This document shows positions 61,459-63,701 of a stretch of 64,000 nt of DNA, in pieces. Made by a program: the position numbers and the translations under genes. This stretch comes from Clostridia bacterium (GTDB lineage Bacteria; Bacillota; Clostridia; Oscillospirales; Acutalibacteraceae): assembly GCA_017448285.1 (NCBI GenBank), contig JAFSLT010000070.1, positions 3,501 to 67,500 of the forward strand. Direction: 5' to 3'. Numbering within the stretch: position 1 is the first letter of the stretch; each line of letters begins with the position of its first letter. Under the pieces are notes generated by a model. That model was not told where the DNA came from and made no database searches. It saw nothing but the letters and a program-made list of their open reading frames with translations.

Positions 61459-62364
61459 TTAATAAACATCCAATTCACACACTGTTACTTTTTCATGCTT
61501 AGTATAAGGTACTTTTCTAACCTTAAGTCTGGGAACTTTTTTAGTAATTGTTTTTTTGTGATCGCTGTCACAAGTAGAAGGATCTGGCACTTTTTCATCC
61601 ACCCATTCATATTCCGTGATCTCTTCAGATTTAAAGTCGACGCTATCTACGTCTATTAATTTTTCTACAATTCTCCCATGCATACCATCTGCCTTCAAAG
61701 GAAAATTATTGTATCCATAATTTTTAAGTGCAGTTACCAATAAATTTGAAACCTGTTTTCTACATTTTTTTACTTCATCTCCATCTAAACTAGGAAATTC
61801 ATACCAACCATCAACTTGATTTTTAAATGCTTGACCAATTAAAACATTCTTAACATAATCTCTAGCTTTGTTTACTTGAACTGGAGACGTTACATTACCC
61901 TGATTATCATTTTTAGTTTTAGTTAAAACAATTATTATCCGACACTTTGAAGCATTTTTAGCCAAATTTTCCATAGTATCCTCAATACCTTTAGTAAAGT
62001 TCGAATTAAATAACGTGTTAGCTGCTACACATAAAATTGCCACATGCGCTCCTTCAGAAAACTTATTTATTATTTTCCTATGACGCATTTCAGCTGAAGT
62101 ATCCCAAAAATGCGCAAACACGATTTTTTTAGATAGGAACGCAGGCAACTTAATTTCCTGCTCTGCCATATCAAGTTGGACAGTGTGTTGATAATCCCAA
62201 GATGGTTCTTTACCAGTCAATATAGTTTTTAAAACAGTTTTACCGGATCCGGTTTCACCCAAAAATATTACTTTTGCCCTTGGAATAACAGCCATTGCAA
62301 TGTCACCGAAAATAAAAAATGATAAAATTAAGAATATCGATAATAAATTACGTTTTTTAAACAT
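61459..62364 (-). CDS. Ras-superfamily small GTPase-like protein with an N-terminal signal/anchor and a C-terminal extension
   Basis: ATG 62364 follows AGGAGTG. MFKKRNLLSIFLILSFFIFGDIAMA, G1 GETGSGKT, G3-like WDTSAEM, G4 TKND, and about 120 extra C-terminal residues. Confidence 0.7.
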   Translation of the reverse strand: MFKKRNLLSIFLILSFFIFGDIAMAVIPRAKVIFLGETGSGKTVLKTILTGKEPSWDYQHTVQLDMAEQEIKLPAFLSKKIVFAHFWDTSAEMRHRKIINKFSEGAHVAILCVAANTLFNSNFTKGIEDTMENLAKNASKCRIIIVLTKTKNDNQGNVTSPVQVNKARDYVKNVLIGQAFKNQVDGWYEFPSLDGDEVKKCRKQVSNLLVTALKNYGYNNFPLKADGMHGRIVEKLIDVDSVDFKSEEITEYEWVDEKVPDPSTCDSDHKKTITKKVPRLKVRKVPYTKHEKVTVCELDVY

Positions 62365-62384
62365 ATTTTTCACTCCTATAAACT

Positions 62385-63701
62385 TTAATAGATCAAACAA
62401 TCTTTTTTAAATTCAAATTTTGATTTTTCATTCTTCAGATATAATTCATTGATTATAGTTACAAAGTCTAAATTTTTTTTTAAATTAGTTTTTAAGTATG
62501 AACAAATTGCTTCGACTTTATCGGCACTGATTGCTCCTTCTTTGTCTCCAAATTTTTCGAAACAATATTCTCTGACTTCGTTGCGCAATTTTTCGCTGTC
62601 GATTTTTTTGTCCTTCCCTTCATTATCCCAATCAAAACAGCTGTCGAAACGATTATTCCACACATCGTCAGAACAATTGGTAACAAGAATCTGTTGTTTT
62701 GTGGATTTTTTTTCTTGATGATGTTTTTTTTTTTCATCTTCACTCGTCTGAACTTCTTTTTGCAATTCTTTATATTGCTCGAGTTCTTGATGTTTTTTCG
62801 CATTGTAATGCTCTATGAAATCTTTGTAGCTTTTTTTGTCTCTACAAACAAAATTAACGTCTTTAGGAAGATATCTGGCAAAACAGTAAGGAATAAACTT
62901 AGAAGGTATGGTTTCTCGACCATTTGGCATGTTAGTATTATAACTCCAAAGATTACATCTTCTAAAAAATTTATTGAACATATATTCAAAATCCACACTA
63001 CTGTCAAGTATAGTTACCCAATAATAATGAAAACTTGAATAACAAGGACGTTTTTTCATTGCTTCTTGGTGCCATAGTATCCTTTTGCCTTCGCTTTCAA
63101 CATGACTGTATCCCGGATAATCAACACCGCATTTTTCACACCAAAGTCTGTTTACAGCATCATAACATTTTTTAAAAGTATCATAATTTATAAGGTCAGT
63201 ATCTTTATTAAAAACATAAAAAATTAAATCTGTATTATCAATTAATTCAGTGATAAACTCTTTATTAGATTTAATTTGATTAAACAAGTTAGATGCTGAA
63301 TATTTTATAAACTGTAACTTGTCATCATTCACCGCGCTGTGCAATTCACCATCTGCGCATTTATAAGGCTGTGAATCAACAGAAAGTTTTTTCACATTAT
63401 TGTATAGCTTCCCCATAACTTCATCGCTACTTCCTTCAGATTCAACAATAACAAGGACATTTAAATTTCTGCTTAACTTCCCTTGTTTAAAAAACTTTCC
63501 ATCAAAATTTATGTCTCTCTTATCTTCTATGTTACCTCTAAAAAATTGATAAAGTTCAAATTTTTCTCGTTCTTGACCACTAAGAGATTTCCATTTGGGC
63601 AAGACCTCTTCCATTGCACAAGATGGATTATTAAATGACAAAACGGTCATTACGGCCAAAAAAGTGCTAAGAATTTTGCATTTATAATTTTTAACGCTCA
63701 T
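62385..63701 (-). CDS. Leader-bearing Cys-rich protein of unknown function, in an operon with the GTPase
   Basis: ATG 63701 lies 8 nt after GGAGG. MSVKNYKCKILSTFLAVMTVLSFNNPSCA leader. The stop is 20 nt before the GTPase start. Confidence 0.65.
   Translation of the reverse strand: MSVKNYKCKILSTFLAVMTVLSFNNPSCAMEEVLPKWKSLSGQEREKFELYQFFRGNIEDKRDINFDGKFFKQGKLSRNLNVLVIVESEGSSDEVMGKLYNNVKKLSVDSQPYKCADGELHSAVNDDKLQFIKYSASNLFNQIKSNKEFITELIDNTDLIFYVFNKDTDLINYDTFKKCYDAVNRLWCEKCGVDYPGYSHVESEGKRILWHQEAMKKRPCYSSFHYYWVTILDSSVDFEYMFNKFFRRCNLWSYNTNMPNGRETIPSKFIPYCFARYLPKDVNFVCRDKKSYKDFIEHYNAKKHQELEQYKELQKEVQTSEDEKKKHHQEKKSTKQQILVTNCSDDVWNNRFDSCFDWDNEGKDKKIDSEKLRNEVREYCFEKFGDKEGAISADKVEAICSYLKTNLKKNLDFVTIINELYLKNEKSKFEFKKDCLIY

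Follow-up and report, generated by a model that had tools for sequence, protein, structure and literature searches.

Near the right end of the window analysed here, a stretch of 64,000 nt from contig JAFSLT010000070.1 of a Clostridia bacterium, two genes lie in the same orientation on the minus strand, to which all coordinates within the pair refer. The upstream gene (62385..63701, start 63701) encodes a protein of 438 residues, hereafter the partner, which exactly matches NCBI MBR0184254.1 (IJQ10_03790). The downstream gene (61459..62364, start 62364) encodes a GTPase-like protein of 301 residues (NCBI MBR0184253.1, IJQ10_03785). The partner ATG is preceded by the ribosome-binding site (RBS) GGAGG, and an upstream TTG start is also open and would give a reading of 443 residues; the GTPase ATG is preceded by the RBS AGGAG and separated from the partner stop codon by 20 nt. 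Consensus scans revealed neither a convincing promoter between the two genes nor, on the coding strand of the pair, a canonical terminator. A first-pass annotation of this DNA had proposed a two-gene operon beginning with a leader-bearing protein of 438 residues. Both open reading frames (ORFs), their tight spacing and a Sec-type leader on the partner, as read from its sequence, were borne out, and co-transcription as an operon is likely in view of the promoter and terminator scans.

The GTPase and its family

Residues 31-172 of the GTPase match the Pfam families Roc (1.9e-13) and Ras (7.6e-10), both above the gathering cut-offs, and this region alone matches: Pfam finds no COR or LRR domain that would mark a Roco protein. 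A search against NCBIfam returned none of the standard bacterial GTPase families (Era, EngB, MglA). Among PDB sequences, 96 matched at E<=0.01, and the 60 of these 96 that were listed are all Rab/Ypt proteins, 59 of them eukaryotic and one archaeal (a Thorarchaeota Rab); the best among those listed is P. falciparum Rab11 (6.9e-9). An AlphaFold2 (AF2) model built from a 25-sequence family alignment reached a mean predicted local distance difference test score (pLDDT) of 82.7, and Foldseek placed it against Rab7, Rab11, Rab10 and Rab1 in the PDB at a target-normalised TM-score of ~0.75, the 50 top matches listed all being Ras-superfamily proteins (Rab, Ras, Rho; TM-scores 0.60-0.79). Model, structural matches and Pfam agree on the alpha/beta fold of the small GTPases. 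The eukaryote-like core recognised in the first-pass annotation is thus supported, as is its separation from Era, EngB and MglA within the P-loop GTPases. The extra C-terminal region had been put at about 120 residues; with the G domain spanning approximately residues 29-216 of the model, it comes to ~85.

The four motifs quoted for this core are all present in the sequence. The P-loop (G1) GETGSGKT (residues 36-43; 62236..62259) conforms to the Ras-superfamily pattern GxxxxGK[ST], and its Gly41 and Lys42 are invariant in the family alignment. Sequence and family alignment place Thr61 within the switch I segment HTVQLD (residues 60-65; 62170..62187). The G3/switch II segment WDTSAEM (residues 87-93; 62086..62106) is atypical, as first described: in DTSAE the Gly of DxxG is replaced by Ala and the position of the catalytic Gln is occupied by Glu. 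At the G4 position, TKND (residues 150-153; 61906..61917) is present and aligns to NKSD of Rab11, but its Asp is missing even from a 64% homolog (TKGQ), and the paralog P0003 is without any G4 motif. G5 is degenerate (PSL). Because the P-loop and the switch-I Thr are kept, the GTPase probably binds nucleotide, and because the G3 Gly and the catalytic Gln are lost, it probably hydrolyses slowly.

The nearest eukaryotic counterparts are Rab11, Rab7 and Rab6, which give the best sequence and fold matches and share WDT, an R-x-R after switch II and the switch-I Thr. The window GTPase differs from them in having only ~20% identity, in lacking DxxGQ, an intact G5 and a C-terminal CC/CXC, and in adding an N-terminal signal peptide and the C-terminal region; of the RabF motifs, only the WDT and RHR remnants are found. 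Beyond alpha5 follows a motif shared by the family, YGYNNFPLKADGMHGRI (61669..61719; pLDDT 80-96), and then a variable tail (61462..61668) with beta hairpins predicted at low confidence and a PDxxxC motif. The protein ends in …VTVCELDVY, with a terminal aromatic residue and no Cys-aliphatic-aliphatic-X (CaaX) end. We rejected the terminal aromatic residue as a signal for outer-membrane beta-barrels, since the organism is monoderm and the tail shows no alternating hydrophobic signature.

A full HMMER search of 1.84 billion representatives yielded 32 relatives of the GTPase at E<=1e-10; the alignments of the top ~25 begin at residue 1 and reach approximately residue 235 of the profile, into the C-terminal extension. 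A word-indexed search had retrieved three. By these alignments the proteins form a distinct family of approximately 25-30 clusters at 50% identity, in which leader, P-loop and C-terminal extension are conserved. Members begin with a K/R-rich N-terminus, a short hydrophobic run and small residues at -3/-1 (AMA, VKA, SFA, ADA, VFA and similar); beta1 and the P-loop follow a few residues past the leader, then G3 as DT[SP][AG]E, a conserved FCKNAH segment, a C[RK]hhhV strand, the post-alpha5 consensus YG[IV]xNLPxxPxGF and a variable tail that usually carries an aromatic residue at its end. Six family GTPases of one subclade end in C-x-I-[FY] (CAIF, CKIF, CSIF, CEIF or CIIY).

Almost every member has an intact GxxxxGK[ST], and in the 25-member alignment no columns other than G41, K42 and D88 are invariant. 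The G3 Gly, missing from the window protein as first noted, is kept in about half of the family (DTSGE/DTPGD), so that its loss does not characterise the family as a whole; the catalytic Gln is found in none. One clade, represented by P0024, keeps a canonical TKxD and SAQ and with them the full set G1-G5. By this distribution the family ancestor was a complete GTPase, and the window clade is a degenerate derivative keeping the phosphate-binding elements. The family hidden Markov model (HMM) matched neither the partner nor any other ORF of the window.

The signal or anchor described ahead of the G domain proved to be a feature shared across the family. In the window protein it reads as a Sec-type signal peptide, MFKKRNLLSIFLILSFFIFGDIAMA (residues 1-25; 62290..62364), with the n/h/c pattern of a K/R-rich n-region, a 14-residue uncharged h-region (LLSIFLILSFFIFG) and AMA just before the mature end, as is typical of Sec signal peptides. 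An uncleaved anchor would turn the picture inside out: the G domain would lie in the bacterial cytoplasm and act together with the partner as a membrane-tethered switch. GTP is available there, Ras-like switches such as MglA and Rup exist in prokaryotes (PMC4316618), and leader cleavage is a sequence-based prediction. Across the family, however, the n-region carries a net charge between +2 and +6, uncharged runs have a median length of 13 residues by a simple count, the P-loop begins at median residue 36, and small residues occupy -3/-1. The run is too short for a transmembrane helix and therefore fits a signal peptide; together with the charge and the small residues it argues for N-in insertion followed by cleavage, with the G domain outside. 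The proposed switch is further weakened by the partner, which bears a leader as well and gives no roadblock match in Pfam or NCBIfam. MglA and Rup are likewise single-domain Ras-superfamily proteins, some of them paired (MglA with MglB), but they are cytoplasmic, and the partner described here is not a roadblock/MglB protein. In the survey by Wuichet and Sogaard-Andersen 2014, the terms 'signal peptide' and 'secreted' do not occur in the text, and 'transmembrane' is used for an unrelated kinase only (PMC4316618). We therefore give the cytoplasmic switch a very small probability.

The partner protein and its C-terminus

An upstream partner gene followed by a family GTPase gene was found in six loci: the window, L012, L066, L070, L073 and L076. 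The pairing that the first-pass annotation had pointed out is thus kept in five further loci. The L012 pair (6874-8876) encodes an upstream protein of 373 residues and a GTPase of 291, the L066 pair (5214-7363) proteins of 387 and 297, the L070 pair of 352 and 291, and the L076 pair of 452 and 310 residues; in L073, the gene for the 64% homolog of the window GTPase is preceded, at a distance of 20 nt, by the 3' end of a partner gene. L012, L070 and L076 encode upstream proteins in which a Sec-type leader is combined with an intact P-loop (GDQGVGKS, GEPGSGKS), in L076 also with NKLD, and a profile of the L012 and L070 proteins aligned to the GTPase family with an hhalign E-value of 5.5e-11. In the L066 upstream protein the P-loop is degenerate.

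The window partner itself begins with a Sec-type leader, continues with a probable degenerate G domain and a K/E-rich linker, and closes with a C-terminal domain that is rich in Cys and has a CaaX-like end. Its signal peptide MSVKNYKCKILSTFLAVMTVLSFNNPSCA (residues 1-29; 63615..63701) shows the n/h/c layout when read from the sequence, with SCA before Met30. Searches of Pfam, NCBIfam and the PDB gave no match to the partner, BLASTP showed no direct similarity between it and the GTPase, and a metagenome scan with the partner alignment (A7) recovered the identical sequence only. It had been described as resembling nothing recognisable, which no longer applies: it is homologous to the L066 upstream protein (BLASTP 3.4e-5, 28% identity), and a weak link leads on to the paralogs with a G domain. 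Window-type partners align with P-loop-bearing partners at hhalign E-values of 0.0015-0.004, repeatedly collinear, and these profile alignments place NLNVLVIVESEGSSDEVMGKL of the partner on the beta1/P-loop/alpha1 segment. Beta1 and the degenerate P-loop position correspond to NLNVLVIVESEGSSDEVMGKLYNN (residues 79-102; 63396..63467), which aligns to INILIVGDQGVGKSTLLHRL and INILIVGEPGSGKSTILHRF in the L012 and L076 upstream paralogs. Despite a pLDDT of 42, the partner model from AF2 shows beta/alpha alternation over residues 81-250. The partner is, in our judgement, quite probably a pseudoGTPase paralog that has lost its P-loop.

The last four residues of the partner form the CaaX-like box CLIY (62388..62399), conserved as CIIY in L073 and CLLF in L066, where the proteins end in NHCIIY and NCCLLF compared with KKDCLIY in the window. 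A Cys-aliphatic-aliphatic-X end is thus kept among partners of 28-40% identity, in a C-terminal part that otherwise evolves near-neutrally (ratio of nonsynonymous to synonymous substitution rates, dN/dS, 0.63-0.96). Cys at position -4 occurs in 3 of the 53 gene-like ORFs of the window, SpoIVA included; the argument for a CaaX box is its conservation across partners, not the single occurrence. Protein prenylation is a eukaryotic activity, and a conserved CaaX box on a Sec-exported protein would for that reason be the strongest sequence-level hint of action in a host cytosol. The Legionella effector AnkB is prenylated by its host (PMC2916131), and a C-terminal CaaX is likewise found in PelC/PelE (PMC13081727) and Salmonella GtgE (PMC13423502). 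In these unrelated families the effector becomes anchored to a membrane once delivered, and the motifs are experimentally prenylated, whereas the box described here is seen as sequence conservation and has Y or F at the X position.

Membrane attachment could also take another form. In L012, L070 and L076 a C-terminal transmembrane helix takes the place of the CaaX box in the upstream protein, and a similar end is encoded in a second frame of the window partner. Its K/E-rich linker contains an A11 homopolymer (62724..62734, minus strand), which reads A10 in a DNA alignment with L006 and L007. In the A10 allele the partner shifts to an alternative reading frame, which is also open in the window sequence (62492..62803, minus strand) and encodes a C-terminal transmembrane helix, LLPIVLTMCGIIVSTAVLIGIM, followed by KGRTKK; a partner of this type (P0005, 402 residues) was found on 14 contigs. 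The A10/A11 difference could be a strain polymorphism, phase variation or a substrate of transcriptional slippage.

Another protein of the window with a CaaX-like end is a von Willebrand factor A (VWA)-domain protein (58102-58935), which has a DESGS motif of the metal ion-dependent adhesion site (MIDAS) type, a leader and a transmembrane segment and ends in CCML.

Organism and genome context

The source is an NCBI metagenome-assembled genome (MAG) named 'Clostridia bacterium', with sample names from rumen studies. The window itself is an ordinary Bacillota chromosome of 31% GC, with genes including gyrA/B, parC/E, lon, murD, RNase Y, PTS, PGI, PRPP synthetase, SpoIVA/SipL and yajC; genes for SpoIIID, an SpoIVB-type protein and SpoVAD were seen on related contigs. 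At least three genes of the GTPase family lie on contigs of the MAG's metagenome sample, two of them with IJQ10 accessions.

On the same contig, past the right end of the window and approximately 4.4 kb beyond the start of the partner gene, lies a gene for an ATP/ADP translocase (Pfam TLC, 501 residues; L013 4056-5561). Its nearest relatives among GTDB species representatives belong to termite-gut Oscillospiraceae/Clostridia MAGs (62%) and a Bacillota MAG (53%), followed by Candidatus Improbicoccus pseudotrichonymphae CfP3-15 (51%) and then by Holosporales, Caedibacter, Rickettsiales, Chlamydiia and Endomicrobiellum. A translocase of this endosymbiont type is a hallmark of energy parasitism. 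Up to the translocase gene, where it stops abruptly, a cluster of phage head genes (L013 1-3851) encodes a large terminase, a capsid-like protein and proteins of 388, 317 and 116 residues; roughly 6 kb separate it from the operon, and it may be what is left of a prophage. In L018, from the termite-gut Oscillospiraceae MAG whose translocase is the closest, a leader-bearing and more canonical Rab-like gene (11233-11756; KVVFVGKEGVGKTS, YYATIGTDF) follows 3.7 kb downstream of the translocase gene and is apparently frameshifted.

Two further window genes belong to this context, one for the 3-methyladenine DNA glycosylase Mpg (Pfam Pur_DNA_glyco; 14875-15378) and one for a protein with an OGFr_N domain (opioid growth factor receptor region; 40551-41306), preceded by a Sec-type leader and a transmembrane segment. 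Takahashi et al. 2023 (PMC10579323, text and Table S10) reported GTPases of the Rab, Roc and Rho types that carry Sec signal peptides, both from clostridia living as endosymbionts in protists and from related MAGs of rumen, goat and human origin. They proposed Sec secretion and host mimicry for these proteins, offering reverse transcription PCR only. According to the same study, the ancestor of a 'small genome clade' within the Acutalibacteraceae acquired an ATP/ADP translocase and Mpg, CfP3-15 encodes eukaryotic-like proteins including 18 small GTPases, and an OGFr_N domain occurs in the endosymbiont NkDv07; PTS together with PGI, which the window also has, is likewise among the features named there. 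A rumen ciliate-associated Acutalibacteraceae MAG with a translocase was described by Solomon et al. 2025 (10.1101/2025.07.29.667580). With Ca. Improbicoccus/Paraimprobicoccus and the small genome clade (PMC10579323), the lineage of the window shares its place among low-GC Clostridia, the translocase, Mpg, a Rab/Roc domain, a Sec leader, several GTPase copies per genome and members among rumen MAGs. By its n/h/c pattern, the window GTPase has the arrangement listed in that report, a small-GTPase domain behind a Sec signal peptide. A placement of our MAG in the clade would rest on markers (TLC, Mpg, PTS with PGI, OGFr_N and 31% GC), not on phylogenomics.

The first-pass annotation held that an exported or membrane-tethered Ras-like GTPase with an atypical G3 and an unrecognised partner was not, as far as known, a described bacterial system. 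This is outdated, because Takahashi et al. 2023 report Rab/Roc GTPases with Sec leaders in the clade whose hallmarks the window genome shows (PMC10579323), and Rab-like effectors of Legionella provide another precedent (10.1101/350777). The latter share with the window protein that they are bacterial proteins resembling small GTPases (Rab/Ras), theirs being delivered to a eukaryotic host, and LegA15 is an effector GTPase with non-canonical catalysis that acts on host trafficking (PMC9757750). Legionella is, however, a diderm using the Dot/Icm type IV system, and its effectors have no Sec leader, no conserved pseudoGTPase partner and no close sequence kinship with the family described here. The 2023 report (PMC10579323) gives lists only; it does not define a family or analyse motifs, nor does it report a partner gene, a CaaX signal or a link to phages. 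This kind of gene has thus been known since 2023; as far as the literature searched shows, the definition of the family, its conserved partner, the CaaX or transmembrane anchoring and the copies in phage contexts are new.

Several other genes of the region encode leader-bearing proteins. One, of 930 residues (44413-47205), has a leader-like N-terminus …KRVGTLLALLGAVSAAKS, a long stretch with a coiled-coil-like reading and a C-terminal AAA ATPase domain, and appears to be a further nucleotide-dependent exported protein. Others share leaders of the Sec type, in many cases nearly identical, that follow the form M(S)KF(D/G)(K/R)K..A..LA.A.L.G.K, both in the window (23712-24395, 34924-35796, 59542-60180 and 60247-60624) and outside it (L013 6719-7846 and 8663-9535; L001 7914-8975 and 9941-10885). 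Most of these consist of the leader, a short segment and a Gly/Ala-rich transmembrane helix, to which the longer ones add a linker of charged, low-complexity sequence and a C-terminal domain that varies. No Pfam family matched these proteins, which may form a family that recombines and is exposed at the surface or towards a host. Between the GTPase stop codon and yajC lies a tandem direct repeat of 173 nt (two copies of 90% identity; 61079..61424), each copy of which contains a GC-rich hairpin (TCTCTCCG…CGGAGAGA), with a partial copy at 58982-59037; an Rfam search of the repeats matched no family, and they are possibly an operon boundary element. RNase P RNA class A (37937-38277; Rfam 254.9 bits), tRNA-Ser(CGA) (44282-44373) and tRNA-Thr(CGT) (59150-59225) are ordinary.

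Phage contexts, variation and a candidate role

Some copies of the gene pair stand among phage genes. The L012 pair is flanked by tail-fibre genes and a holin/GH25 endolysin cassette, and the L066 pair lies among phage-like capsid and replication genes (Pfam Minor_capsid_2, SSB, Phage_Gp15, G39P_N), which suggests spread as prophage morons. An extracellular contractile injection system (eCIS) with the GTPase as cargo was rejected for L012, because the pair adjoins a holin/endolysin cassette and the Sec leaders are hydrophobic. In L001 (7192-10894), from the same metagenome sample as the window contig, two tandem family GTPases of 242 and 228 residues with identical leaders occur without a window-type partner. 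Each converges on a gene for a leader-plus-transmembrane protein (356 and 317 residues) whose first 54 residues are identical, and the arrangement looks like a duplication with conserved 5' ends; the first of these GTPases, P0003 (IJQ10_03965), is a paralog within the MAG of the window. A tblastn search with the window GTPase and P0024 against the 50,697 phage records of INPHARED gave no matches, and PADLOC and PHROGs held no meaningful family for either the GTPase or the partner, on which ground a reading as a defence system was dropped.

These contexts raise the alternative of a surface or extracytoplasmic module with a bacterial or phage role, such as superinfection exclusion, receptor masking or envelope remodelling, in which the G fold would serve as a nucleotide-independent scaffold and no eukaryotic host would take part. 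The tail-fibre, lysis, capsid and replication genes around L012 and L066 and the phage head genes about 6 kb from the operon would fit it, and so would the degenerate G3, G4 and G5 of the window GTPase and the combination of leader and C-terminal transmembrane helix in the partners of L012, L070 and L076, which points to display on the bacterial surface. Nucleotide independence is nevertheless hard to reconcile with a near-universal GxxxxGK[ST], with the invariance of G41, K42 and D88 and with a clade that keeps G1-G5 complete. CaaX-like ends would have a meaning only in a eukaryotic cytosol, no PADLOC or PHROG family and no INPHARED or IMG/VR match speaks for a phage function, and the genome context fits the published endosymbiont clade. 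We consider such a module unlikely.

The locus varies considerably between strains. In four samples (L007-L010) the GTPase is interrupted at codon 125 by an insertion sequence (IS) element with the terminal repeat CTAGGGCCTGTTAACACGAAATAGGGAAT (29 nt) and a transposase beginning MEITKEMYEKIAHLFPKQ; on these contigs the terminal repeat is also found approximately 270 nt upstream of the partner gene. An IS remnant of 81% lies elsewhere in the window, between glycosyltransferase and P-type ATPase genes (53427-53536). L006 is without the GTPase, and in some strains the partner is frameshifted. Intact ORFs of 301 and 438 residues occur on many contigs (e.g., 23 and 17 for the commonest variants). 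Between the window and L073, dN/dS of the GTPase is 0.45-0.52 at a dS of ~0.4-0.5, i.e., fast and below neutral, and dN/dS is <1 for the N-terminal part of the partner. Fast but sub-neutral evolution is common in genes of host interaction.

Such variation might be taken to mean that the pair is a relic in decay, left over from eukaryote-like genes that were acquired horizontally and no longer have a function, an impression to which the disrupted and frameshifted alleles in several samples, the dN/dS of 0.63-0.96 in the C-terminal part of the partner, the degenerate G motifs and the frameshifted leader-plus-Rab-like gene in L018 would all contribute. Decay does not readily account for the intact ORFs on many contigs, for a dN/dS <1 in the GTPase and the N-terminal part of the partner, or for a leader, P-loop, C-terminal extension, gene order and CaaX box that are kept among homologs of 28-67% identity. 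We hold the relic to be highly improbable.

The interpretation that we favour, with little more than even confidence, is that of a host-directed effector module in a protist-associated, energy-parasitic lineage of Clostridia related to the small genome clade and Ca. Improbicoccus. Other leader-bearing proteins of the window point the same way in being nucleotide-dependent or eukaryote-like (the 930-residue AAA protein, the OGFr_N protein and the VWA protein). Under this model, the GTPase and the partner would be exported by Sec and cut by signal peptidase I, and a monoderm living in the host cytoplasm would release both directly into a compartment with GTP and prenyltransferases. The GTPase might there act as a Rab mimic with a long-lived 'on' state, or as a decoy titrating host Rab regulators or effectors. 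The partner would be anchored at its C-terminus, either by host prenylation of CLIY or by a transmembrane helix as in the A10 allele and the homologs of L012, L070 and L076, and could position the GTPase on a host membrane or the bacterial surface. The outcome would be interference with Rab-dependent trafficking of the host, and the copies in phage contexts would spread as prophage morons.

Several observations count against an effector module of this kind. Statistical support for the link between partner and G domain is weak (hhalign probability 9-17%), and with a pLDDT of 42 the partner model that AF2 built from three sequences is unreliable. Degenerate G3, G4 and G5 make the GTP specificity of the window GTPase doubtful. 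Cys at -4 also arises by chance, as in SpoIVA ending CIIL, and to our knowledge Y at the X position (CLIY, CIIY) does not belong to the canonical specificity of prenyltransferases. With the GTPase cut by an IS element or absent and the partner frameshifted in some strains, the module is dispensable, accessory and in flux. The sporulation genes SipL and SpoIVA are intact (window 1633-4687), which would be unexpected in an obligate endosymbiont. Scans of IMG/VR found neither the window clade (A1) nor the P0024 clade (A6), and one scan of GTDB species representatives (A1) did not find the window clade. Finally, secretion and nucleotide binding, like the intracellular lifestyle of the MAG and its host, are all inferred.

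A more elaborate form of the effector model can be offered only tentatively, as we regard it as rather doubtful in its entirety. In this form the module would be mobile and sometimes phage-borne, and the Sec-exported Rab-like GTPase would form a heterodimer with the pseudoGTPase, whose tail would be either a host-lipidated CaaX box or a transmembrane helix switched by A10/A11. The two would act as a 'Rab plus membrane adaptor' on the endomembranes of a protist. If true, the heterodimer would amount to a Sec-dependent rewiring of host trafficking by a Gram-positive endosymbiont that uses no injection system.

Intracellular Bacillota have been documented only recently. Situated near a translocase indicative of energy parasitism, the locus offers a concrete, testable candidate for the manipulation of a protist host by such bacteria. 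If the effector model is correct, a monoderm symbiont would deliver Rab mimics by the Sec pathway alone, and the copies in phage contexts would suggest that prophages carry such effectors between gut Clostridia. It would also lend indirect genomic support to a eukaryote-associated lifestyle in a rumen lineage whose host association has so far been deduced only from genomes and from enrichment in ciliate fractions.

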